The position numbers and the translations under genes are program-made. A DNA stretch of 64,000 bases from an uncultured delta proteobacterium (GTDB lineage Bacteria > Myxococcota_A > Polyangia > Haliangiales > Haliangiaceae). Location of the stretch: NCBI GenBank assembly GCA_963848295.1, contig CAWKDB010000011.1, positions 1 to 64,000 of the forward strand. Direction: 5' to 3'. Shown in pieces: positions 46,422 through 58,178 of the stretch (its first letter is position 1; each line of letters begins with the position of its first letter). Below the pieces are notes generated by a model. That model did not search any database. It had not been told where the DNA came from and saw only the letters and a list, made by a program, of their open reading frames with translations.

Positions 46422-46472
46422 TTCGTGACCCCAAGAGGAATCGAACCTCTGGCCTACGCTTTAGGAAAGCGC
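46422..46472. repeat. att site (duplicated 3' part of tRNA-Arg, integrase-proximal)
   Basis: TTCGTGACCCCAAGAGGAATCGAACCTCTGGCCTACGCTTTAGGAAAGCGC, identical to 58101-58151. Confidence 0.96.
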
Positions 46473-46544
46473 GGGGCGCGCTCGTTCGGTTAGTTGCCAT
46501 GATATGGCACGGCATGTTTTCTCGACGGCGGCCGGTGGTTTATA

Positions 46545-46597
46545 GGTGACTAGACATGGCGTGATATGCGACGATTGGTGACTAGAATGGTGACTAA
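46545..46597 (+). repeat. integrase arm-type repeats (left): GGTGACTAG, TGGTGACTAG, TGGTGACTAA
   Basis: Copies at 46545-46553, 46576-46585 and 46588-46597; the same motif recurs at the right end. Confidence 0.75.
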
Positions 46598-46618
46598 TCA
46601 CCGCCATCGGAGGTCGCC

Positions 46619-47959
46619 ATGAAGCGAAGGTTCAACGAGAAGTCGGTCGCCGCTCTCGCGCTGCCGCCGGGCAAGGCGCAGCTCGTCGTCTGGGACACCG
46701 AGGTCACCGGGTTTGGCCTCGTGATCGGCAAGGAAACGCGGACGTTCATCGCCGAAGACCGCATCGACGGCGTGAAGGTCCGCCGCAAGGTCGGGACACT
46801 CGGCCGCGTTCGCGACGACGGGTTGCCGTGGAGCGTCCAGCTCGCCCGAGAGCGCGCAAAGGAGCTGCTCGGCGGCATGGCGGGCGGCATGGCGCCGAAC
46901 GGCCTACGCACGCGCGCAGGCGGCCCGACGCTGCGCGAGGCGCTCGACTTCCACGTCTCCAAGATGGAGCGAGGCGAGAACCGCCGCGGTAAGGTTTGCT
47001 CCCCTCGATCGATCGCTACGCTGCGCGGGTGCGTCGAGCTCCATCTCGCTGACTACCTCGGTCGGCCCCTTCTCGGCCTCACTGCCGATGTGCTCGACGA
47101 CATTCGCATGGCGATCGAGCGAGAAGCCGAGCGGATGGGCGGATCGAATCCGGCGAACCCGCCGGGACGTGCGACGTCGAATCGCATTCTCGCCAACGTG
47201 TCGGCGATCTGGCGCTCGTGGCATCGACGGCATGGGCTTCCGGCATCAAACCCCACCGAGCGGTTGATCGCCGGCGCGCTCAAGCCGCGCAACAACCGGA
47301 TCGCGAATAGCGCCCTACCCGCGTGGCACGCGAAGGTGCTCGCGATGAAGAACCACGTCCGTCGCGACCTGCAGCTCGTCGCGCTGTTCACCGGCGTGCG
47401 AACCGACGGCGTGCGCAACCTGCGATGGGACGATATCAACTTCGACGAAGATCAGCTCCACGTCGCGCGAGCGAAGGGCGACCGACCGTACACACTGCCG
47501 TTGGTCGGAACCGTGCGCGCAATCCTCGAAGCGCGGCGTAAGGAGAACGCGAAGAAATTCAAGGAAGACGGTGGCGACCGCGGGTTCGTTTTCCCGACGT
47601 GGGCGCGTGACGGTAAGAAGGTGATCGCGACGGCCGAGGCGAAAGAGCGCTGTAATGTCCTCGACGCGCGCGGGAACCCGAAGCGCACCGAAGACGGCGA
47701 CTACGTGCGCGAGACGTACCTGCCGGGGATCCAGGCGACGCGTAAGACGTTCAACAGCGTGGCGATCGAGATTGGCGTACCGCTCGAAGCGCGTGAGGCG
47801 CTGATGAATCACGAGGGTCACGGCGTGAACGTGAAATCGTACGGCTTCCCGCAGAACTGGGACTACCTCGCCGAGCAAGCCGCTTTGATCGAGGCCGCGC
47901 TCTGGAAGCGGTTGAAGGCGGACCCGAAGGCGAAGCGCGCGAAGCTGCGTGCGGTATGA
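46619..47959 (+). CDS. int: tyrosine integrase with N-terminal arm-DNA-binding domain (P4-like)
   Basis: GGAGG RBS; VWDTEVTGFGL...ARERA arm domain; FTGVR (R), AKG (K), QATR, LMNH, SY. Confidence 0.9.
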   Translation: MKRRFNEKSVAALALPPGKAQLVVWDTEVTGFGLVIGKETRTFIAEDRIDGVKVRRKVGTLGRVRDDGLPWSVQLARERAKELLGGMAGGMAPNGLRTRAGGPTLREALDFHVSKMERGENRRGKVCSPRSIATLRGCVELHLADYLGRPLLGLTADVLDDIRMAIEREAERMGGSNPANPPGRATSNRILANVSAIWRSWHRRHGLPASNPTERLIAGALKPRNNRIANSALPAWHAKVLAMKNHVRRDLQLVALFTGVRTDGVRNLRWDDINFDEDQLHVARAKGDRPYTLPLVGTVRAILEARRKENAKKFKEDGGDRGFVFPTWARDGKKVIATAEAKERCNVLDARGNPKRTEDGDYVRETYLPGIQATRKTFNSVAIEIGVPLEAREALMNHEGHGVNVKSYGFPQNWDYLAEQAALIEAALWKRLKADPKAKRAKLRAV

Positions 47960-47973
47960 GCACATACCGCATC

Positions 47974-48006
47974 ATGTCTTGACATATCGTCAATCCTTGT
48001 TAAGAT
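47974..48006 (+). promoter_or_regulatory. sigma70-like promoter with overlapping palindromic operator(s) for the TA operon
   Basis: TTGACA (47979-47984), 16 nt, TAAGAT (48001-48006); palindromes ATGTC-TT-GACAT and TTGAC-ATATC-GTCAA. Confidence 0.65.
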
Positions 48007-48298
48007 GGACTCGACGATGAGGGAGCCGCTCCCACCGAGTACGGTCAAGCGGCTGCTCGTCGCCATCCTGGCGGGGGGCATACTCGCGTTCACGAAACAT
48101 GCGTACGAGGAGATGGCAAAGGACAACCTGACGGAGATCGACGTGCGCAACACGCTACGCGCCGGCACGGCGAGTCCGGGCGAGCTCGAGCGAGGCACCT
48201 ACCGCTACCGCGTCAGGACGTCGCGCATGGCCGCCGTCGTCGCGTTCCGGTCGGAGTCACATGCGGTCGTCGTCACGGCGTGGAGATTCAAGAGCTAG
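48005..48298 (+). CDS. DUF4258-like (RelE/BrnT-fold) putative toxin
   Basis: FTKHAYEEM..DNLT..DV...L..G...YRYRV...VVVTAW; lies upstream of an antitoxin-like gene; the true start may be ATG 48017. Confidence 0.7.
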   Translation: MDSTMREPLPPSTVKRLLVAILAGGILAFTKHAYEEMAKDNLTEIDVRNTLRAGTASPGELERGTYRYRVRTSRMAAVVAFRSESHAVVVTAWRFKS

Positions 48299-48336
48299 AT
48301 CCCAAACAGCGGACGTAACCCGCGGAGGGAAACAAG

Positions 48337-48882
48337 ATGAAGTGCTTGCCGTGCGGTCACGCGATGACCACCAAACGAGAGAACGTGCCGTACACGGCCC
48401 TTCCGGGGGCCGTGCTGGTCGGCGTGCCTGTGAGCCGTTGCCCGAGCTGCGGCGAGTACGAGGTTGCCATCCCGGCGATCGACGAATTGAACCGCGTGCT
48501 CGCTGCCGCGGTGGTACGCAAGCCGACGCGACTGAGTGGCGGTGAGGTTCGTTTTCTGCGTACGTACCTCGGCTATTCGGGCGCGGACTTCGCCAAGTTG
48601 ATCGGCAGCGATCCGGCCACGGTCTCGCGATGGGAAGGCGACAAACAGCCGCTCGGCCATCACACTGATCTGCTCTTGCGCGCGCTCGTGGTGCTCGACA
48701 AGAAGGTCGACCAATACCCGATTACCAAATTCGCCGAGATCGGCGACGCCGCGGCCGCCACGCTGCGCTACGCGTTCAAGCCCGCGGCTAAGAAGTGGAA
48801 GCCGACGGAATTGCTCGGCCGCGTGAGCAGGCCGTTGTTAGCACTCGCGCCCGATCCCGCCGCTGTCAGGGTGTTGCGGTAG
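48337..48882 (+). CDS. MqsA/YgiT-type zinc finger + XRE-HTH antitoxin
   Basis: CLPC...CPSCGE; LSGGEVRFLRTYLGYSGADFAKLIG...TVSRWE. Confidence 0.8.
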   Translation: MKCLPCGHAMTTKRENVPYTALPGAVLVGVPVSRCPSCGEYEVAIPAIDELNRVLAAAVVRKPTRLSGGEVRFLRTYLGYSGADFAKLIGSDPATVSRWEGDKQPLGHHTDLLLRALVVLDKKVDQYPITKFAEIGDAAAATLRYAFKPAAKKWKPTELLGRVSRPLLALAPDPAAVRVLR

Positions 48883-48998
48883 GGTCTTCGTGTCGCACTC
48901 GGAGGTCTGATCCACCGACGAGCCGGTTCCAACTACCTCGCTGGGCCGGGCGCGGCACCCTTTCAAGGGTCGAGCGCCGAGGGTGAAGCGAGGCACCT

Positions 48999-49637
48999 TT
49001 GGCAGTTCTGAGACCGCCCGAACGACCCGACGCACGACAACCGATCGCTAACAGGCGAAGCGCGACGATCGAGACGCGGCATTGGTGGGACAAGTTCACG
49101 ATGGAGTGGGCGTGGCTCGCAGTGCTGCCAATGGCACAACGACTCGTCGACGAGCGCGCGCGGCACATTCGCGTGTGGAACTATCGCAACGAGCTCGCGG
49201 ACGCGTGCAACGCTGTCGCCGCGTTTCATGGTGACGCCGCGATCCGCGAGCCAGTATTCGTCGAGCTTCATCGCGAATTCCTCAAGGCGGATGCGGAGGC
49301 TGCCCCGTACACGGCGAAGCACTCTGGGCTCGAGACATTTCGCGAGCGAGCGTTCGACGAAGACGACACCGTCGAGAAAGCAGCGCGCACGTTGCTCGCC
49401 CAGCACGGCTTTAGCCCAGCGCGGCTTAGGCGTGGTGCCGAGCGCGACAAGACCGCAGAGCGGCACTCCGTGGCCCTGCGCGAGAAATACGAGGACGAGC
49501 GCGCCGTATGGCAGGGACTTCTTGGTGAGGTGACAGCCGGTCGGCGCTACAACGCGGGCGGCGTCCCATTGACGTCAGCACGAATCGAAAAAATGATCGT
49601 CGCGCTCGATGCAAAGCTAAACGCGCTGCCTGCCTAA
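48999..49637 (+). CDS. hypothetical protein (element cargo)
   Basis: Open frame with natural-looking composition; start uncertain (possibly ATG near 49100). Confidence 0.5.
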   Translation: MAVLRPPERPDARQPIANRRSATIETRHWWDKFTMEWAWLAVLPMAQRLVDERARHIRVWNYRNELADACNAVAAFHGDAAIREPVFVELHREFLKADAEAAPYTAKHSGLETFRERAFDEDDTVEKAARTLLAQHGFSPARLRRGAERDKTAERHSVALREKYEDERAVWQGLLGEVTAGRRYNAGGVPLTSARIEKMIVALDAKLNALPA

Positions 49638-49721
49638 TCAAAAAGGCGGATAGCGAACCGGGGACAGATCTCGATCCTCGCTGTCCGTAGTTCGGATCAC
49701 GCGACTGCCCGACAAAAGGGC

Positions 49722-49952
49722 ATGTCCAAGCGTCAGACCGACGAAGAACCAACGCCGCTAGACCTCGAGCGAGCGGTCGACATCCATGAGGTGTCGGAGC
49801 TGCTCGGTCTCGCCGAGATCACGATCCGGCAACAGCACGCGCGCGGCGTGGGGCCGCGGGCATTCCGCATCGGCCGCGCGATCCGGTGGCGCCTTGCCGA
49901 CGTCCTCGCTTTCCGCGACGCGCGCATGGTCGGAAAGCGAGTGGCGCCGTGA
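49722..49952 (+). CDS. AlpA/excisionase-family HTH protein
   Basis: VDIHEVSELLGLAEITIR....RGVGPRAFRIGRAIRWRLADV. Confidence 0.85.
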   Translation: MSKRQTDEEPTPLDLERAVDIHEVSELLGLAEITIRQQHARGVGPRAFRIGRAIRWRLADVLAFRDARMVGKRVAP

Positions 49953-50158
49953 CCTCGCTCGGTCCGCTCGCGACGATGCTGATCGAGCGTTTGCGTTGCG
50001 CGCTTGCGCTCGTCGACGATCTTGATCCCGCCGAGCAAGATGCGGTGATCGGTGCGCTCGTCAGCGATCTGCGCGCTCGTCGCCCGGTTGCCGTCGCGCC
50101 GCTCGGGGTTCTTCCACCGCCGACGGATCCGATTCGAGACCCGCGAGGTGTGCGATGA
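49949..50158 (+). CDS. hypothetical protein
   Basis: GTGA and ATGA overlaps on both sides. Confidence 0.55.
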   Translation: MTSLGPLATMLIERLRCALALVDDLDPAEQDAVIGALVSDLRARRPVAVAPLGVLPPPTDPIRDPRGVR

Positions 50159-50631
50159 GCAACGACGACGATATCCCGTGGCCGACGCACACCGAGGTCG
50201 ACGAGATCAGTCGCCGCAACGTCGCCGAGGCGGTCGCCGAGGCGGAGCAAGAGCGAGCCGAGTTGATCGACGACGATATGGCCGAGCTGTCGATCGCCGT
50301 CGCCGCGCTCAAGGAGCTGCGCGAGATGGACATGTCGGCGTTTGCGCCGGAAACGCTTGTCGCGATCCTCAAACTCGCTCAAGAGACAATCGATGTCGCC
50401 GGTAGCGTGCGCCTCGATGGGCTGCGAGGACTCGGTGGGTGCCTCGAAGATCTGACACCACGCGAGATGTCTCGCCTCGACGTCTCGAGGCGAGACGAAT
50501 CGACGGCGCGTCAGATGGCCGAGATGCCCGATGATCTCTACGAGCAGGTCAAGACGGGCGCGATGAAGCCGCGCCGCGCACAGCAACTCATCAACCGCGC
50601 TCGCATCCGCGCGATGTACGGGACGCCGTGA
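50155..50631 (+). CDS. hypothetical acidic helical protein (possible C-terminal HTH)
   Basis: Coupled to its neighbours within the replication operon. Confidence 0.6.
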   Translation: MSNDDDIPWPTHTEVDEISRRNVAEAVAEAEQERAELIDDDMAELSIAVAALKELREMDMSAFAPETLVAILKLAQETIDVAGSVRLDGLRGLGGCLEDLTPREMSRLDVSRRDESTARQMAEMPDDLYEQVKTGAMKPRRAQQLINRARIRAMYGTP

Positions 50632-51683
50632 CCATCAACGTCGACGCCATCCGCGCGGCGCTCGCGCCGATCGCGATCTTCGAGTCGCAAGGCGTCGACG
50701 TTCTCGATCGCGGCGCTGAGCTGCGCACGAACCTCTGTCCGATCTGCGGCGAGCGTTCGCGCCGCGCGGTCAAGGTGAACACTGAAACCGGCGCGTGGAA
50801 GGATCACGCGAAGGGTTGCAAGGGCGACATCTTCCGGTTGCTCGCGGGCTACGCCGGGCTCGACGTTGCTCGCGAGTATCCGCGCGTCCTCGAGCTTGCG
50901 GCGCAGATCGCCGGCATCGCGAATATCACCAGCCCTGAGATCGAGAAGCTCGTTGCCGAGCGGCGTCGCACGTCCGCCGAGCGGCGTGAACGCAACGAAG
51001 TCGCGCGTGCCGCAGCTCGAGCTCGCATGCCCGGGGTCTGGGCCTCGCTCGCGACCCGTCACGCCGGCGGCGAGGCGTACCTGCGCGACGATCGCGGCAT
51101 CAACCCTGCGACGTTGCGCGATCACGGCGACGTCGTGCGGTACTCGTCGCGCGGCGAGCCCGCGGTAGCGCTTCGCGACCTCGAGAGCGGCGACGTCGTC
51201 GGCGTGCAGTACCGCCGCGTGCTGCCCGGCGATCCGAAGACCCCAGCTGAGACCGGCTCCCAGTTCGCCGGCTCGTGTCTCTACGGGCGGATCGCCGACC
51301 TCGATCCGGACGGCGTCGACGTTGCGGTTGTCGTCGAAGGTCTCGCCGACACGCTCGCGGCGCGGCTGGCGTTCCCGGGCTGCGCGATCTTCGGCGCGCC
51401 TGGTGCTGGCCAGCTCGAGACGGTTACGGCGGCGGTTGCCGCGCGCGTCGCCGAGTGTCGCGGTTGGCTGCTGATCGTGCCGGACGACGACGACGCAGGC
51501 GCGGACCACACAGCGGCGGCGATCGTCGCCGCGCGAGACGCTGGCCTCACTCTCGCTGCCGACAACGCCGGACTCGAAGGCGCATCGACGGTTCGACTCG
51601 TCGACCTCGGCGAGCACCACGATCTTGCCGATGCATGGCGCCATCCCGGTTGGTGCTGGCAGTGGCCACGGAGAACGACATGA
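50628..51683 (+). CDS. DNA primase (zinc finger + TOPRIM)
   Basis: CPIC...H..GC.GDIF zinc finger, YLRDDRGI, VVEGLAD, IVPDDDDAG. Confidence 0.82.
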   Translation: MTINVDAIRAALAPIAIFESQGVDVLDRGAELRTNLCPICGERSRRAVKVNTETGAWKDHAKGCKGDIFRLLAGYAGLDVAREYPRVLELAAQIAGIANITSPEIEKLVAERRRTSAERRERNEVARAAARARMPGVWASLATRHAGGEAYLRDDRGINPATLRDHGDVVRYSSRGEPAVALRDLESGDVVGVQYRRVLPGDPKTPAETGSQFAGSCLYGRIADLDPDGVDVAVVVEGLADTLAARLAFPGCAIFGAPGAGQLETVTAAVAARVAECRGWLLIVPDDDDAGADHTAAAIVAARDAGLTLAADNAGLEGASTVRLVDLGEHHDLADAWRHPGWCWQWPRRTT

Positions 51684-52999
51684 GTGGAGCGAAGCGATCG
51701 CGTGCGCGTCTCGAAGTCATCGAGGCCGACGACCGGCCGACGATCACGCCTCAGCAACGCGACGAGGACTTCCGACGCGACGACAAAGGGCGGATCTACA
51801 CGACGCAAGCCAACATCGCGCTTGCGATGAGAAAGCTCGGTGTGACCGTTCGCTACGATCGGTTCGCCGGCCACGAGCTCGTCGCTGGTCTGCCGGGATT
51901 CGGACCGCGCCTCGACGACGCCGCGATGAACCGACTGCGCCTCGCGATCGACTCCGAATTCACGTTTCGGATCACAAAGGATTTCTTCTACGACGTGGTC
52001 TCTGATCGCGCGCGGCAGAATTCATTTCACCCCGTCGTCGAATACCTCGCCGCTCGCACGTGGGACAAGGTCGAGCGGATCTCCACATGGCTTAGCGACT
52101 ACGCCAGCGCCGAGAATTCGCCTTACGTGCGCGCAGTGTCGCGACTGAGTCTCGTCGCAGCCGCGCGGCGCGTGCGTGACCCAGGCTGCAAATTCGACGA
52201 GATGCTCGTGCTCGAGTCGGCGCAGGGTACGAACAAGTCGACCGCGCTGCGCACGCTCGCGGTGCGTGACGAGTGGTTCGTCGACGATCTCCCGCTCGGC
52301 GCCGACACGAAACGGCTCATGGAGGCGACCGCCGGCCGCTGGATCGTCGAAGCCGGCGAACTCAAGGGCATGAGCAAAGGCGATGTCGCGACGCTCAAGG
52401 CGTACCTGTCGCGCCAGACCGATCAAGCTCGGCTTTCATACGGTCGCAAAGAAACGATCGCGCCACGGCAATTCGTCATCATTGGCACGACGAACGAGAC
52501 CGAGGGCTACCTCAAAGACTCGACCGGCAACCGTCGATTCTGGCCAATCCGCGTCAAAGCGTTCGACCTCGACAAGTTACGGCGCGACCGCGATCAACTC
52601 TGGGCTGAGGCTGCGAAGGCCGAAGCCGACGGCGAGAGTATCCGGCTCGATCCGGCGCTGTATCAGCATGCCGAGGTCGAGCAAGACGCGCGGCGCGCCG
52701 ATGACCCGATGGTGATCTTGCTGAGCGAGCACCTCGGCGACGTGTGCGGCAAGTTGCGGACGCTCGATGCCTGGAAGGTTATCGGCGTCGAGCCCGGCAA
52801 GGCGACGCAAGATCAGAACGTCCGCCTCGGCGCAGCCATGCGCGAGCTCGGGTGGGAACGCAAGCAACGGCGGTTCAACGGCGGCGTGGAGTGGGCCTAC
52901 GTCCGAGGATCGGACGCCGAGCGCGAAGTACCGATCGAGGTTGAAGTCGAAATCGGCTTCGACAAGCAACAGCGAGTGAAGGTGCGCCGCCATGCGTAA
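51680..52999 (+). CDS. VapE/VirE-family helicase-like ATPase
   Basis: FHPV..YL...WD..ERI, PGCKFDEMLVLESAQGTNKST, WIVEAGEL, GTTN, LKDSTGNRRFWPI, RDQLWAEA. Confidence 0.88.
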   Translation: MSGAKRSRARLEVIEADDRPTITPQQRDEDFRRDDKGRIYTTQANIALAMRKLGVTVRYDRFAGHELVAGLPGFGPRLDDAAMNRLRLAIDSEFTFRITKDFFYDVVSDRARQNSFHPVVEYLAARTWDKVERISTWLSDYASAENSPYVRAVSRLSLVAAARRVRDPGCKFDEMLVLESAQGTNKSTALRTLAVRDEWFVDDLPLGADTKRLMEATAGRWIVEAGELKGMSKGDVATLKAYLSRQTDQARLSYGRKETIAPRQFVIIGTTNETEGYLKDSTGNRRFWPIRVKAFDLDKLRRDRDQLWAEAAKAEADGESIRLDPALYQHAEVEQDARRADDPMVILLSEHLGDVCGKLRTLDAWKVIGVEPGKATQDQNVRLGAAMRELGWERKQRRFNGGVEWAYVRGSDAEREVPIEVEVEIGFDKQQRVKVRRHA

Positions 53000-53176
53000 C
53001 CCCGTAACCCCCGTCAAGGGCCGTCACCCCTATCTCTACGAGTGCCCGCGAGCGGTTCTTAGCAGCTGCTATTTCTTTCTTTCTAAAAAAGGGGAGTTAC
53101 GGGGATTACGGAGCGGATCGTCGACGGGGAACGCCGTAACCAGCGGGGGTACGGCGCCCGGGTACGGGGATTACGC
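52995..53176. repeat. putative replication origin: CGTAACC / GGTTACG-type iterons around an AT-rich core
   Basis: CGTAACCCC twice and CCGTCACCCC; ATTTCTTTCTTTCTAAAAAA (53071-53090); then inverted GGAGTTACGGGGATTACGG, CCGTAACC, GGGGTACGG, GGTACGGGGATTACG. Confidence 0.65.
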
Positions 53177-53257
53177 CGGATACCTCACAGCAGCAGAGCA
53201 GCAGGACCGCGGTGTAAATCGACCCGCCCAGCCGTCGCCCTCAAGCTGCAAAGCTGT

Positions 53258-53692
53258 ATGAGCGAACAGCGTCGTAAGCCGCCAAGCCGACTCGGCATGG
53301 GTCCGACGCCGGGCTCGTTCACCGCAGGCGATCCGCGGATCAACCGCAACGGTCGCCCGCGCAGCGGACTGGCGTTCGCCGAGCGCGTGCGCGAGCGGAT
53401 CGATCCCGACATGATGATCGACCTCGCGATGCGCGTCGCCGAAGACACGGGGATGACGCCTGCGGAGCGTTTGGCTGCGCTGTGGCCGCTGATCGACCGC
53501 GGATTCATCAAACCACCGGCGCAGCTCGAAGCGCACGTCACAGGCAACGCTACGCCGTCCTATGACCTATCGAAGCTGCCGCTCGACGAGCGCCGCGCGT
53601 TGCTCGAGAAGCTGCGCGCGTTGCGCACCACCTCACCAGACGAAGACCCGCGGTTACCGGAACCAGCGGTCTCCGACGACGTTAGCGAATAG
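53258..53692 (+). CDS. DUF5681-like putative terminase small subunit
   Basis: GSFTAGDPRINRNGRPR motif, LIDRGF.KP, YDLSKL..DE; lies upstream of terL. Confidence 0.6.
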   Translation: MSEQRRKPPSRLGMGPTPGSFTAGDPRINRNGRPRSGLAFAERVRERIDPDMMIDLAMRVAEDTGMTPAERLAALWPLIDRGFIKPPAQLEAHVTGNATPSYDLSKLPLDERRALLEKLRALRTTSPDEDPRLPEPAVSDDVSE

Positions 53693-53750
53693 TCACCACG
53701 ATAGTCGCCACACGAACCCGCAACGACTTCCAACCCAGCGAGAACACACG

Positions 53751-54062
53751 ATGTCCGTTGTTAAAGCCGCACCCCGTGACGCGCGCGCCAATCACTGGCG
53801 CCCTGACGTCGACGGCGCAACCGGCATCACACGCCGGCGCTACCGCGGCCGACTGCGGCGTGGCCACCCGACCGCAGCGAGCGACGACGCGGTCGACGTG
53901 CGGCTCGCGATCGCCGAGCTCCAGGCCGCGCACGAGATGCTCGTGCGCTGTGACGACGCGTCCGACATCGAGCGCGAGCAGCTCAAGCGCACCGCCTTCG
54001 CCAAGATCGCGCTCGCTGGGCGCGCCGTTGACGAGGTGACGTTGCGCCGGGGTGTCCGATGA
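53751..54062 (+). CDS. hypothetical protein
   Basis: ATG at 53751; ATGA overlap with the next gene. Confidence 0.55.
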   Translation: MSVVKAAPRDARANHWRPDVDGATGITRRRYRGRLRRGHPTAASDDAVDVRLAIAELQAAHEMLVRCDDASDIEREQLKRTAFAKIALAGRAVDEVTLRRGVR

Positions 54063-54307
54063 CGTTCCCTGTCACCATCGAGCGTGACGAGCGCGGCTGT
54101 CTGTTCCGCATGTCCGCCAAGGCTTGGGCCGCGGGTTGGCACATCGGTGACCGCGTGATCGTCGAGCTCGACAGCGGCGACGACGCAGGGGACGTGGTCG
54201 TGTGCGAGCTCGAGTGCGGTCCCGCCGACGAGCCGATCGCGCGGCCGTTCGCACCGCACGGGATCAAGCGCACAACCGGCGTCGTCCGGCAACCGAGGGC
54301 CGCATGA
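54059..54307 (+). CDS. hypothetical protein
   Basis: Coupled ORF of 82 aa. Confidence 0.5.
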   Translation: MTFPVTIERDERGCLFRMSAKAWAAGWHIGDRVIVELDSGDDAGDVVVCELECGPADEPIARPFAPHGIKRTTGVVRQPRAA

Positions 54308-54372
54308 TCGCCGCTCGTCTGCCGCGACTGCTCGCCGCGCTGGCGTTCTTGTTGTTGTCGAGGTGCGTGTGA
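54304..54372 (+). CDS. 22-aa hydrophobic micro-ORF MIAARLPRLLAALAFLLLSRCV
   Basis: ATGA overlap upstream and GTGA overlap with the terL start. Confidence 0.4.
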   Translation: MIAARLPRLLAALAFLLLSRCV

Positions 54373-55913
54373 GCGACGACCTCGCACAGCTCGAGCGCGA
54401 GCTGTGGAATAGCTTGTGGCGCGACGATCCGCACAAGCGGTTTCTCATGTTCGTCGAGCGCTACTGGCCGGTCGTTACCGGTACGGCGTACGTCGCGAAC
54501 CGCGTCACGACCGCGATCATCGCCGCGCTGCAAGACGTTCTCGACGGTACGACGAGCCGGCTCGTCATCGCCAAGCCGCCAGGCTGCGGCGTGTCGACAC
54601 TGCTCGTGCTGTTCGAGGGCTGTCGCACCGCGATCGACCCGTCGTGGCGCACGATCGCCGCGAGCCACAGCTACGAGCTCGCCGCGACCGCGAGTCGTCG
54701 CGTCCGGCGCTTGGTGACGTCGCCCGAGTTTCGCCAGAGCTTCGAGGTCACGCTGCGCGACGACGCGGCGCAGGTCTCGCTCTGGGAGACGTCCGCCGGC
54801 GGTCACTTCATCGCGGTCGGTCGCGAGAGCCACGTCACCGGCCGCCGCGCCAACGAGATCGTGTGCGACGACTTGAACGCCGCCGCGGATCGTCACAGCA
54901 AGGCCGCACTCGAGCACGCCTGGACGTTCTTCGCCGAGACGCTGTCGACGCGCATCGACAACGACCGCAGCGCGATGGTCGTCTGTGCGCAGCGGACCGC
55001 CGTCGACGACGTGCCCGGCCGACTCGTGGAGCAGGGTGGTTGGACCGTGCTCGAGCTGCCGGCCGAAGACGAGCACGGCGAGCCGACGGCGCCTAACGTG
55101 CTGCCCCGCGAACGCCTCGACGCCTTGAAAGCGCAGATCGGCTCGCTCGCCTACGCGACGCAGTACCTGCAACGCCCGAGCGACGACAGCGAGGCCGTGA
55201 TCCGCCGCGTGTGGTGGCGGTTCTACCGCGCGCCGCACGTCTCCGAGCAAGCGCCGCGACCGGCGGGTTGCGACACCGAGCAACCGGCGATTGCATTGCC
55301 CGAGACGTTCGATCGCGTCGTGATCGCGTGCGACTTGACGTTCGGCTCGCTGACCGGCGACTACGCGGCGGTGCAAGCGTGGGCCGCGAAGGGCGGTGCG
55401 CGCTACCTGCTCGAACAGTGGCGCGCGCGGGCTGGATTCGAGGCGCAGGTCTCGGCGATCGCCGCGATCGCGTCACGCTATCCAGGCTGCAAGGTGCTGA
55501 TCGAGCGAGCGGCGAACGGCGCCGCCGTGATCGAGCAGCTGCGCACCGTCATCCCCGGCGTCGTCGCGGTGCGCCCGCAAGGCCCGAAGCTCGCGCGCAT
55601 CGCCGCCATGGCGCCGACGGTCGAAAGCGGCGCCTGTCTGCTGCCGCTCGGCGCGTCGTGGCTAGGCGACTTCGTCGAAGAGCTAGCCGGCGCGACGAAG
55701 CACGACGACATGGCGGACGCCGCCGCGTACGCGATCGCCGACCTGACGCGCGACTCGATCGACAACGAAGAGCCGTTCGGCGGCTACCTGTTCACCGCCG
55801 ACCAGGGCGACGCGCCGCCGGCTCCCACCGCGTCGGACGATCGCCACCACAGCGCCTTCGATTCCTTTCGTTCGCGCCGCTGCCTCGTCGGCGGCTTCGT
55901 CCCCGACGAGTAA
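54369..55913 (+). CDS. terL: terminase large subunit (Terminase_6/6C type) with degenerate Walker A
   Basis: LVIAKPPGCGVST, SHSYELA, TGRRANEIVCDD, AQRTAVDD, QYLQRP; nuclease IACDLTF, LIERAANG, HDDMADA. Confidence 0.85.
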   Translation: MSDDLAQLERELWNSLWRDDPHKRFLMFVERYWPVVTGTAYVANRVTTAIIAALQDVLDGTTSRLVIAKPPGCGVSTLLVLFEGCRTAIDPSWRTIAASHSYELAATASRRVRRLVTSPEFRQSFEVTLRDDAAQVSLWETSAGGHFIAVGRESHVTGRRANEIVCDDLNAAADRHSKAALEHAWTFFAETLSTRIDNDRSAMVVCAQRTAVDDVPGRLVEQGGWTVLELPAEDEHGEPTAPNVLPRERLDALKAQIGSLAYATQYLQRPSDDSEAVIRRVWWRFYRAPHVSEQAPRPAGCDTEQPAIALPETFDRVVIACDLTFGSLTGDYAAVQAWAAKGGARYLLEQWRARAGFEAQVSAIAAIASRYPGCKVLIERAANGAAVIEQLRTVIPGVVAVRPQGPKLARIAAMAPTVESGACLLPLGASWLGDFVEELAGATKHDDMADAAAYAIADLTRDSIDNEEPFGGYLFTADQGDAPPAPTASDDRHHSAFDSFRSRRCLVGGFVPDE

Positions 55914-55976
55914 ATCGACCCACCTAGCCAACCTTGCAAACCTAGTCTCACCGCCAATGTTATCCGCCACCATTTC

Positions 55977-56049
55977 TGACGTCGCGCCCACAACCCAAGC
56001 TCTTGGCGGTGCTTGCGTTGGCAGACTCCTGCGCTCGGGCGCGACGTCA
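55977..56049 (+). ncRNA. C4/CI-like antisense RNA (three-way junction)
   Basis: Perfect 13-bp closing stem, a 9/10-bp stem with a TCTTGGCGGT loop, and a GCAG-ACTC-CTGC hairpin; complementary sites lie upstream and over the downstream RBS. Confidence 0.7.
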
Positions 56050-56072
56050 CTTCTTGTTTCAGGAGCACCGTC

Positions 56073-57719
56073 ATGAAGAAGAGCCCGTTTTCCCTCCGTC
56101 TGAAATCCCTCCGGTTCTTGTCCGCCGTTGACAGCCCGGCGCAGTCCGCGATCGCGCACGCGCTGATCTTCAAGCGCGACAGCGGCGAGGTCACGCTCAC
56201 CGCGAAGGTCGCGAAGCTGTCCGACGAGCTCGGGCTCGTGTTCGGCTACGCGTTCGCGTCATCGCTCGATGGCGGCACGACACCGTACGTCGACGCGCAG
56301 AACGACGCGATCGATCCGGACTTCCTGAAAGCCGCGATGGACTTCGTCGCAGGCGGCGGCGCGACCGACATAAACCACGACGGTCACCAAGACGGCCGCG
56401 TGATCTTTGCGTGGCCGTTGCTGCCCGACATCAACATGGCGCTCGGCATCGAGTCGAAGACCGTCGGGCTCGCCGTGGCGATCAAGCCGAGCGCGGCGAC
56501 GTTCGCGAAGTTCAAGAGCGGCGAGCTCACCGGGTTCAGCATCGAGGGCACCGGCGCTCGCGAGCCGCTCGCCAAGAGCGACGTCACGAAGCAGCCGAAG
56601 CACGTCGTGTGTTCGAAGTGTGAGAAGTCCACCGCGCCGCTGTCGTACTGCTCGAACTGCGGCAGCGCGCTGAGCGGTGACGAGAAGCCGCCGGTGGCCG
56701 CGTCTGGCGCGAGCGCCGACGAGCTCGAGGACCAGGCCGACAAGGCGATCGCCCACAAGCTGTGGGTCGCGAAGCAACTCGCCGAGCACCTCGACTACCT
56801 CGACGGCATCGCGGCTAGCAGCGGCGTCGACGCGGCGCGCACCGTCGCCGAGCGCAACGTGAGCAGCGTCGGCAACTGGGGTGCGGTGTGGCTCGAGAAG
56901 CGCGGCATCGCGTCGCAGGCTGGCGACGCGTCGTTCGCTCAGATCGTCAAGGCCGCGTTCGCCGTCAACGAAACGGCTCGCAAGGGCCACCGCGAGAAGG
57001 TCGCCGCGGCCCAAAGGACGTTCGACGGCGCGGTCGCCGAGCTCGCCACCAAGCGCGGCATCACGAACGACGCCGCGCGGGCCATCGCGATGAACTTCCC
57101 GACAATCAAGGCGCTGCACGCAGACTGGCAGGAGCTCGACCAGTCGGTGCCCGAGGGCCTCGTCGACATCGCTCAGCCGTACACGAAGGCCATCGACGAC
57201 AAGATCGGCGCACTGCAACGCGAGCGCGTCTCCCACATCGAGGCGACCGCCGCGGCTCGAAACCTCGGCATTTACGAAGCCGAGCTCGCCTTGGTGAAAG
57301 GCAAGACGGCCGACGCGGCGCACGGTCGCGAGTCTCAGCTCGGCCGACTCGAGCGCGAGATCGCCGAAGCGCAGGACGAGCGGTCGACGATTCGCACGGG
57401 CATCACCGAACGCGTCGCGGCCCTGTCGCCGCATCACATCGCCACCGATGCCGCGCAGTCCGCGCTGTTGGCCAAGCGCGCCGAGCTCGCGACCATCGTG
57501 AACGAGAGCCCGGGCGGCCGGCTGTTGCGCAAGGCCGTCGAGCGGTTCCAGAAAGAGCACAAGGTCCCGACGTACGCGCAAGCGATGGCCCGCGCGCTCG
57601 TCGACGACGAGGTCGTGCGCGAGCTGTGGCCGATGCGCGACGAGATGCCGGCAACCGCCGACATCGTCGCGGCACGCAAGGCGCTGGCCGAGCTCGACCG
57701 CGAGCAGACGAGCGCGTAA
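56073..57719 (+). CDS. XkdF-like prohead serine protease fused to a double zinc ribbon and a long helical (scaffold-like) region
   Basis: AGGAG RBS; LSAVDSPAQ, GLVFGYA, VDAQND, DINH, KSGELTGFSIEG; CSKC..CSNCG; Ala/Glu/Arg-rich helices. Confidence 0.72.
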   Translation: MKKSPFSLRLKSLRFLSAVDSPAQSAIAHALIFKRDSGEVTLTAKVAKLSDELGLVFGYAFASSLDGGTTPYVDAQNDAIDPDFLKAAMDFVAGGGATDINHDGHQDGRVIFAWPLLPDINMALGIESKTVGLAVAIKPSAATFAKFKSGELTGFSIEGTGAREPLAKSDVTKQPKHVVCSKCEKSTAPLSYCSNCGSALSGDEKPPVAASGASADELEDQADKAIAHKLWVAKQLAEHLDYLDGIAASSGVDAARTVAERNVSSVGNWGAVWLEKRGIASQAGDASFAQIVKAAFAVNETARKGHREKVAAAQRTFDGAVAELATKRGITNDAARAIAMNFPTIKALHADWQELDQSVPEGLVDIAQPYTKAIDDKIGALQRERVSHIEATAAARNLGIYEAELALVKGKTADAAHGRESQLGRLEREIAEAQDERSTIRTGITERVAALSPHHIATDAAQSALLAKRAELATIVNESPGGRLLRKAVERFQKEHKVPTYAQAMARALVDDEVVRELWPMRDEMPATADIVAARKALAELDREQTSA

Positions 57720-57940
57720 TGCGCGACGAGTGGAGCATCGGTTTCGGCGACGCGGTCGACCTGCGCCACTCGGTCGCCGCACGCGAGCGGCTGCTCGTCA
57801 CCGTTGCTCCCTCGTGGTCGCGCGAGCGGCTCGATGGCTTCCTGCACGCGCACGAGCTCGCGCTCAACGCCCAGCGGTGCACGTGCTCGAGCTGTCCGCT
57901 TCACTCATCTTCGGGGACCGCAGGGCCTGACCTCCTGTAG
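57719..57940 (+). CDS. small hypothetical protein (CxCxxC near the C-terminus)
   Basis: TAATG overlap with the upstream gene. Confidence 0.45.
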   Translation: MRDEWSIGFGDAVDLRHSVAARERLLVTVAPSWSRERLDGFLHAHELALNAQRCTCSSCPLHSSSGTAGPDLL

Positions 57941-58049
57941 CGCGTGAATGGAAGGCTCGCTCCCCAACTTTTCGACGGACGGCGAGTAGCGTTGCTACAA
58001 CGCGGCCGTCGAGCAAGCGCGCAAGACGAAGCGATGACCGACGTCGGGT

Positions 58050-58070
58050 TGGTGACTAACTGGTGACTAG
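58050..58070 (+). repeat. integrase arm-type repeats (right): TGGTGACTAA-C-TGGTGACTAG
   Basis: Same motif as 46576-46597, 30 bp inside the right att. Confidence 0.75.
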
Positions 58071-58100
58071 CGATACGTCGCCAGTAAATTCTTCAATCAT

Positions 58101-58151
58101 TTCGTGACCCCAAGAGGAATCGAACCTCTGGCCTACGCTTTAGGAAAGCGC
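58101..58151. repeat. att site within the intact tRNA-Arg
   Basis: Identical to 46422-46472. Confidence 0.96.
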
Positions 58152-58178
58152 CGCTCTATCCGGCTGAGCTATGGGGTC
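58105..58178 (-). tRNA. tRNA-Arg (anticodon CCT)
   Basis: Reverse complement GACCCCATAGCTCAGCCGGATAGAGCGGCGCTTTCCTAAAGCGTAGGCCAGAGGTTCGATTCCTCTTGGGGTCA. Confidence 0.96.

Follow-up and report, generated by a model that had tools for sequence, protein, structure and literature searches.

The closest described counterparts of the locus considered here are the antisense RNAs C4, of phages P1 and P7, and CI, of the satellite P4. In the portions of the literature available to us, C4 and CI RNAs control early lysis–lysogeny genes, mostly in phages of beta- and gammaproteobacteria, and both are described as RNase P substrates that lack a T-loop (PMC5499578, available in part). According to the accessible part of PMC4825925, P4 CI has complementary sites on both sides, seqA and seqC, and the Gifsy-1 IsrK/orf45/STnc1160 system contains a short open reading frame (ORF) that extends through a CI-like RNA and is coupled to the gene that follows it. 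The C4 features used for comparison below are those given in the accessible text of PMC5320573, with further C4 and CI material from PMC2864571 and PMC8198154, likewise available in part.

We analyzed a 64,000-nucleotide stretch of DNA from an uncultured delta proteobacterium of the family Haliangiaceae (contig CAWKDB010000011.1, positions 1 to 64,000; hereafter the window), in which a 71-base folded segment lies between a large terminase gene (terL) and a protease-scaffold gene. The original prediction took this segment for a C4/CI-like antisense RNA directly ahead of a gene of the protease-scaffold family; both the position of the fold and the family of the gene held up, and every pairing drawn in that prediction sits where it had been placed. 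Like P1/P7 C4 (Rfam RF01695), the predicted RNA is about 75 nt long, with a long closing stem that begins at a G, a U-rich leader, an AC(C/U)U tail (ACUU in the window, not ACCA) and two inner hairpins, and it has candidate targets upstream and downstream in its own transcript, with the large loop facing the site nearest the start codon. Like P4 CI, which scores as RF01695, it is probably satellite-borne and has complements on both sides; however, P4 CI silences a replication operon by premature termination, whereas the present fold lies in a late packaging region after terL. Unlike C4, the closing stem has 12–14 bp rather than about 17; the large-loop hairpin comes first and the small one second, whereas C4 runs from P1 through a tetraloop hairpin and a large-loop hairpin to an unpaired a′; the junction is 0–4 nt, without the single-stranded 7-nt a′ segment; no c4-a1b1/IsrK structure lies upstream; and the gene downstream is a scaffold gene, not icd/ant. 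Gifsy-1 differs as well, in that the window locus has no IsrK match and its short ORFs are not conserved.

In family searches, the Rfam C4 and c4-a1b1 models gave no match at E ≤ 10 within 55700–56300, RF01695 gave none at E ≤ 5 in the copies of the fold from two related genomes (G061 and G066, described below), and Rfam at gathering threshold returned tRNAs only; the gathering threshold of RF01695 (clan CL00128) is 45 bits, and the P4 and P1 controls scored 74.9 and 68.8 bits. Upstream of the fold there is no match to c4-a1b1 (RF03163), and only the first letters of its consensus resemble 55942–55955; in P1, the stretch matching those letters is the −10 box. Judged from sequence, the fold is C4/CI-like in its layout and end signatures and is not a member of the family, and a C4-like function is plausible. 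What survives of the original assignment is a covarying fold with flanking complements and with C4-like size, G+1, leader and tail, but not membership in the C4 family.

Table 1. Features of the integrated element and of the structured RNA, in window coordinates.
Feature	Position	Strand	Details
attL	46422..46472		50–51 bp direct repeat of tRNA-Arg(CCU) 3′ end
Tyrosine integrase	46619..47959	+	PF00589 E 3e-7, phrog_1
DUF4258 gene and MqsA-like HTH gene	48005..48882	+	likely toxin–antitoxin pair; MqsA match under curated cut-off
AlpA/excisionase-like HTH	49722..49952	+	phrog_66 E 1.6e-7
Primase (Toprim) and VapE-like helicase	50628..52999	+	family matches
Phage-type late promoter motif ahead of putative terS (predicted promoter)	53217..53247	+	
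Putative small terminase (terS)	53258..53692	+	no family match; assigned by its position and because homologues precede terL in related elements
Large terminase (terL)	54363..55913	+	phrog_38 E 1.6e-78, PF17289
Phage-type late promoter motif ahead of RNA	55913..55943	+	−35 TCGACC 55915–55920, 17-nt spacer, −10 AAACCT 55938–55943
Upstream anti-loop, 9-bp complement of large loop	55949..55957	+	weaker 6-bp copy at 55964–55969
39-codon ORF through fold	55957..56076	+	stop overlaps scaffold ATG; may be chance
Structured RNA	55978..56052	+	P1 55978–55989/56037–56048; P2 55991–56000/56011–56020; P3 56021–56032; tail ACUU 56049–56052
SD CAGGAG (56060–56065) and downstream loop target up to A of ATG	56060..56073	+	
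Protease-scaffold gene, 548 aa	56073..57719	+	XkdF-like protease domain fused to satellite-type helical scaffold region
attR and intact tRNA-Arg(CCU)	58102..58178	−	

The element that carries the fold (Table 1) spans 46422–58151 (11.7 kb), is integrated at tRNA-Arg and is flanked by a 50-bp repeat of the tRNA-Arg(CCU) 3′ end. None of its 15 scanned ORFs matches a capsid, portal or tail family (6 of the 15 have no family match of any kind), and because there is no capsid or portal match the element is probably a phage satellite of the PICI-like type. PICI-like satellites combine att repeats, an integrase, an AlpA-like regulator, a primase/helicase and a size of about 10–15 kb with the absence of capsid and tail genes, and the window's element shows this entire set, a satellite-sized setting that the original prediction does not mention. 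It further encodes a putative terS, a terL and a protease-scaffold gene of its own, and phage-type late promoter motifs precede two of these genes. Repeats of TGGTGACTA, likely integrase arm-type sites, occur at 46566–46597 ahead of the integrase and near attR (approximately 58049–58070). Related integrases carry repeats of their own; a second related integrase is present in the host genome (G000:C10:49191–50471), and the RNA was not found in the 17 kb downstream of it. Genes related to terL occur in 22 of 147 genomes of the order, including the window's, all within the genus (21 other genomes), and outside the genus a search of 401 class-level genomes gave one weak match only.

The N-terminal third of the 548-aa protein encoded downstream of the fold shares 45–75% identity with phage XkdF-type protease-scaffold proteins (17 of 41 homologues are annotated PF14550); the protein matches phrog_3017 at E 8e-7 and PF14550 at E 1.8e-4 and 22 bits, under the curated cut-off of 24 bits. 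Its helical remainder aligns with proteins of G033, G061, G066 and P0005. A C-terminal motif of phage scaffolds occurs once in the window protein (aa 482–520) and at least twice in the proteins of G033, G066 and P0005, and was found neither in the G061 protein nor in reversed-sequence controls. Counted separately, the satellite-type proteins at L080:12219–13382 and L083:750–2195 and that of P0005 carry the motif two to five times, and the six phage versions tested carry it once. At L270 and L273, XkdF-type genes lie ahead of apparent head genes, as judged by eye from ORF maps. The AlphaFold model of the 548-aa protein is poor (pLDDT 56.9), and Foldseek gave no PDB match. We infer that the protein competes with the helper scaffold and redirects capsid assembly in a CpmB/Rcm-like manner. 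SaPI CpmB and PICI Rcm are satellite proteins that redirect capsid assembly, according to the accessible part of PMC12409344. Like them, the protein is a predicted competitor of the helper scaffold, and the putatively gated proteins bear the phage-scaffold C-terminal motif; unlike them, the gene here is a whole or partial protease-scaffold homologue beside the element's own terS and terL.

The closing pairing of the fold is perfect over 13 bp (55977–55989 with 56037–56049), and the inner stem has nine pairs and one C·C mismatch. The surrounding 151-nt region folds modestly (z −1.76, with 12 of 200 shuffles equally good); for the 71-nt core, z is −4.5 with 0 of 200 shuffles as good, a value that is inflated, since the core was picked for its stem. 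The same fold, in different letters, lies directly upstream of three of the four satellite-type scaffold genes (those of the window, G061 and G066) in 91 genus genomes; the satellite-scaffold profile was built from those four genes, so the outcome is that no fifth was found. The remaining gene, that of G033, has no fold ahead of it; the spacer at the corresponding place (L083:624–749) is C-rich, repetitive and poorly folding. A second copy in the G061 element (G061b, besides G061a) brings the total to four. G061b (L081:14043–14108) is followed by a 16-codon ORF and a fragment of a tail protein, and G066 has tail-tip genes downstream (L080:14405–17049). The terL frame is broken in both G066 and G061, so decay of these elements is possible. 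Of the 21 distinct terL loci with sequence beyond the stop (one of them, from G038, which is flagged unpublished, used only in this denominator), the remaining 18 have no fold at that stop, and none was seen ahead of phage protease genes at the loci checked.

Two covariance models connect the four copies. With a model built from the window alone (R1), the other three rank first to third in 98,864 bases, in the order G061a, G066, G061b. A model built from those three with the window excluded (R2) scores the window at 50.3 bits, on the + strand only, with the next best match at 18.2 bits, a test that is partly circular, the three copies having been aligned to R1. The copies are 66–76 nt long with approximately 45–57% pairwise identity. 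The 12 bp of P1 are paired in 48 of 48 cells (one bulge set aside), and 9 of the 12 positions have changed on both sides; G+1, the pyrimidine leader and the AC(C/U)U tail are found in 4/4 copies, a set of only four chosen partly by fit to the model. We regard the fold as a real structured RNA-type element and as a small new RNA family in myxobacterial satellites.

Wider searches yielded candidates that we did not accept. BLAST of the RNA region in the 147 order genomes gave short matches only, and the seven inspected looked like coding sequence. R1 gave weak matches in 35 of the 147 genomes; 12 of the 17 inspected lay inside long ORFs, and none was accepted. When run across whole genomes, R2 failed to recover the copy in the window, which means that absence cannot be concluded from these scans. 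Over sets of 77, 10 and 13 loci, R2 returned doubtful matches only (L088 at 26.8 bits, L218 at 19.3, L270 at 18.1), and L235 (25.3 bits) is antisense within an ORF; none of these was counted. A hand-made descriptor gave two extra matches in 3.8 Mb, one of them in G038, likewise not counted; its background of eight matches in the 15.6-Mb host genome means that about two are expected by chance in 3.8 Mb. Scans of viral contigs with single proteins or with A9 found nothing. In one full phage (L270:6280–6363), a fold closed by 13 bp lies 17 nt ahead of an apparent minor head gene and scores 18 bits with R2; it may be a relative or chance.

The large loop of the window (10 nt, 56001–56010) is complementary to sequence on both sides of the fold. 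Upstream, TTGGCGGTG (56003–56011) forms nine Watson–Crick pairs with CACCGCCAA (55949–55957), and AGACT is complementary to AGTCT (55944–55948). Downstream, UGGCGGUG pairs with 56066–56073 with one G-U, and this duplex can be extended to 11 bp (56004–56014 with 56063–56073), covering the last three SD bases up to the scaffold ATG at 56073–56075. CTCCTG is complementary to CAGGAG of the SD, a pairing that competes with the 11-bp duplex and would need a 4-bp hairpin opened. Of the two antisense loops originally proposed, the large one matches the start region; the second "loop" is that same hairpin, which would have to melt. Complements of the P3 strand downstream amount to 6 bp in the window and 7 bp in G061a, both needing the hairpin melted, and the upstream half lies within the promoter.

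As controls, we used 86 two-hairpin structures with a perfect closing stem of at least 12 bp from both strands of the host genome. Loop complementarity of at least 9 bp upstream and at least 8 bp downstream, thresholds taken from this case, is reached by 1 of the 86, the window's own structure, and 7/7 complementarity by 4 of the 86. Taken alone, the downstream match is unremarkable (the window loop is matched equally well or better by 96 of 1284 host start-region proxies), and the cis upstream target ranks only 11th among the loop's sites in the element. The four loops are unrelated in sequence, and in 8/8 rows the best partner of each is its own upstream or own start region; loops were delimited by hand with the targets already seen. 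Pairing is individually significant in only two of the four copies: the window (p = 0.002 upstream, 0.018 downstream) and G061a (0.016 and 0.014), with no significance for G061b (0.11, 0.11) or G066 (0.26, 0.18). Of 1285 host start proxies, 570 match the G066 loop equally well; the loop of G061a also pairs with the start region of the window (p = 0.004), and the cis targets of G061a rank only 8th and 10th among sites in its element.

The promoter motif ahead of the RNA belongs to a pattern, TCG(A/C/T)CC, 17–18 nt, xAxxxT, followed by a start codon 5–6 nt on, that is present at 15 of 17 protease-gene loci (two pairs redundant) and is probably a late promoter for leaderless phage messages. Loci with the motif ahead of the protease gene are L005, L008, L012, L019, L020, L023, L025, L269, L270 and L273, and it occurs also at L082:10126; its 10-base core has 15 occurrences in 15.6 Mb of host sequence. 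Some protease-scaffold genes contain the core internally as well (L270:9839, L014:8530), where it may drive a separate message for the scaffold. We infer that the RNA's transcript starts at the anti-loop, near position 55950. This leaves AGTCT between the −10 box and the start, so that only read-through transcripts from terL would carry it; given this location at a phage-type late promoter, AGTCT is unlikely to serve as a target of the RNA. The bipartite target layout of the original prediction is accordingly reduced: complements flank the fold on both sides, but the upstream one is probably not bipartite. None of the other three RNA copies is preceded by the motif. We considered a sigma-70 promoter (TTGCAA-N18-TGTTAT) but did not call it, which counts against an antisense reading, as an immunity RNA needs a constitutive one; no terminator was called on the + strand.

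The reading that we favor, with slightly less than even weight, is that of an antisense RNA in the style of C4/CI, in which the large loop would mask the ribosome site and start codon of the scaffold gene. With a start near 55950 from the phage-type promoter, the anti-loop would be the first part of each new transcript; it would capture the large loop ahead of SD synthesis, and the scaffold gene would stay on. Cleavage of the RNase P type at G55978 would then detach the leader, and the large loop, no longer held, could pair with 56063–56073, in cis or as a released RNA of approximately 75 nt, switching the gene off. The purpose of such a switch would be to limit or time the dose of the predicted capsid-redirecting scaffold protein. 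More tentatively, the copies may be antisense RNAs processed by RNase P, an independent family with hairpins reversed relative to C4 that gates a capsid-hijacking scaffold gene and whose loops and targets change together.

The short ORFs that cross the fold would fit a different gate, which we consider unlikely: translational coupling purely in cis and without processing, in which the fold masks the SD until a ribosome on a short ORF unfolds it, so that scaffold synthesis would depend on translation of terL or the leader. An ORF of 39–44 codons crosses the fold in 3/3 terL-adjacent copies, with its stop no more than 25 nt away from the scaffold start, two such ORFs start in a GTGA overlap with the terL stop, and there is precedent in Gifsy-1 orf45/anrP (accessible part of PMC4825925). 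However, shuffles yield such an ORF in 37%, 16% and 21% of cases, the peptides look unrelated, G061b has no such ORF, and the conserved G+1, tail and upstream anti-loop are left unexplained. A second reading, to which we give similarly low credence, takes the fold for an element of mRNA processing or stability, a tRNA-like RNase P site at which the scaffold message would be separated from that of terL and left with a stem capping its 5′ end; the loop complements would be incidental. The features kept in 4/4 copies are P1, G+1, leader and tail, and the pairing of loops with targets is individually significant only in the two copies named above. Against it stand two unrelated loops that each have an upstream and a start-region complement, a combination seen in 1 of the 86 controls. 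The antisense, cis-coupling and processing-only readings are not mutually exclusive, and antisense action and cis coupling can coexist.

It is very improbable that the RNA acts in trans mainly on other messages, those of the element's integrase or of a helper phage. The window loop's best + strand site in the element (46599–46612, −18.9 kcal/mol) does overlap the integrase SD, but its margin over the next site is 0.2 kcal/mol, no such site was seen ahead of 13 related integrase genes, and the top sites of G061a exclude its integrase start. Very improbable, too, is a small inverted-repeat insertion or a signal at the DNA level (a hairpin of single-stranded DNA, or a site for packaging or recombination), for which the adjoining terL, the perfect inverted repeat of the window's P1 and an R1 match on the minus strand (21.7 bits) would speak, set against the G-U pairs in the G061a fold, the one-sided conservation of leader and tail, the R2 match on the + strand only and the lack of a second copy in the host genome.

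In the literature searched, in which subscription papers are thinly covered, we found nothing on this RNA or these satellites, no RNA gate on a capsid-redirection gene of the CpmB/Rcm type, and no account of an element class with its own terS/terL and a scaffold homologue (and, in the window copy, phage late promoters). The available part of PMC12360218 held nothing relevant, and the motif files of PMC2864571 could bear on novelty. If the antisense reading is true, the logic of C4 and CI would be at work on a late head-assembly gene in a Myxococcota satellite, carried out by a structurally different RNA, and the design would either have evolved twice or have spread and been rearranged far beyond Rfam detection. 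It would also provide a testable explanation of how the dose of capsid-redirecting proteins is set in satellites, with RNA controlling satellite capsid piracy rather than lysogeny.
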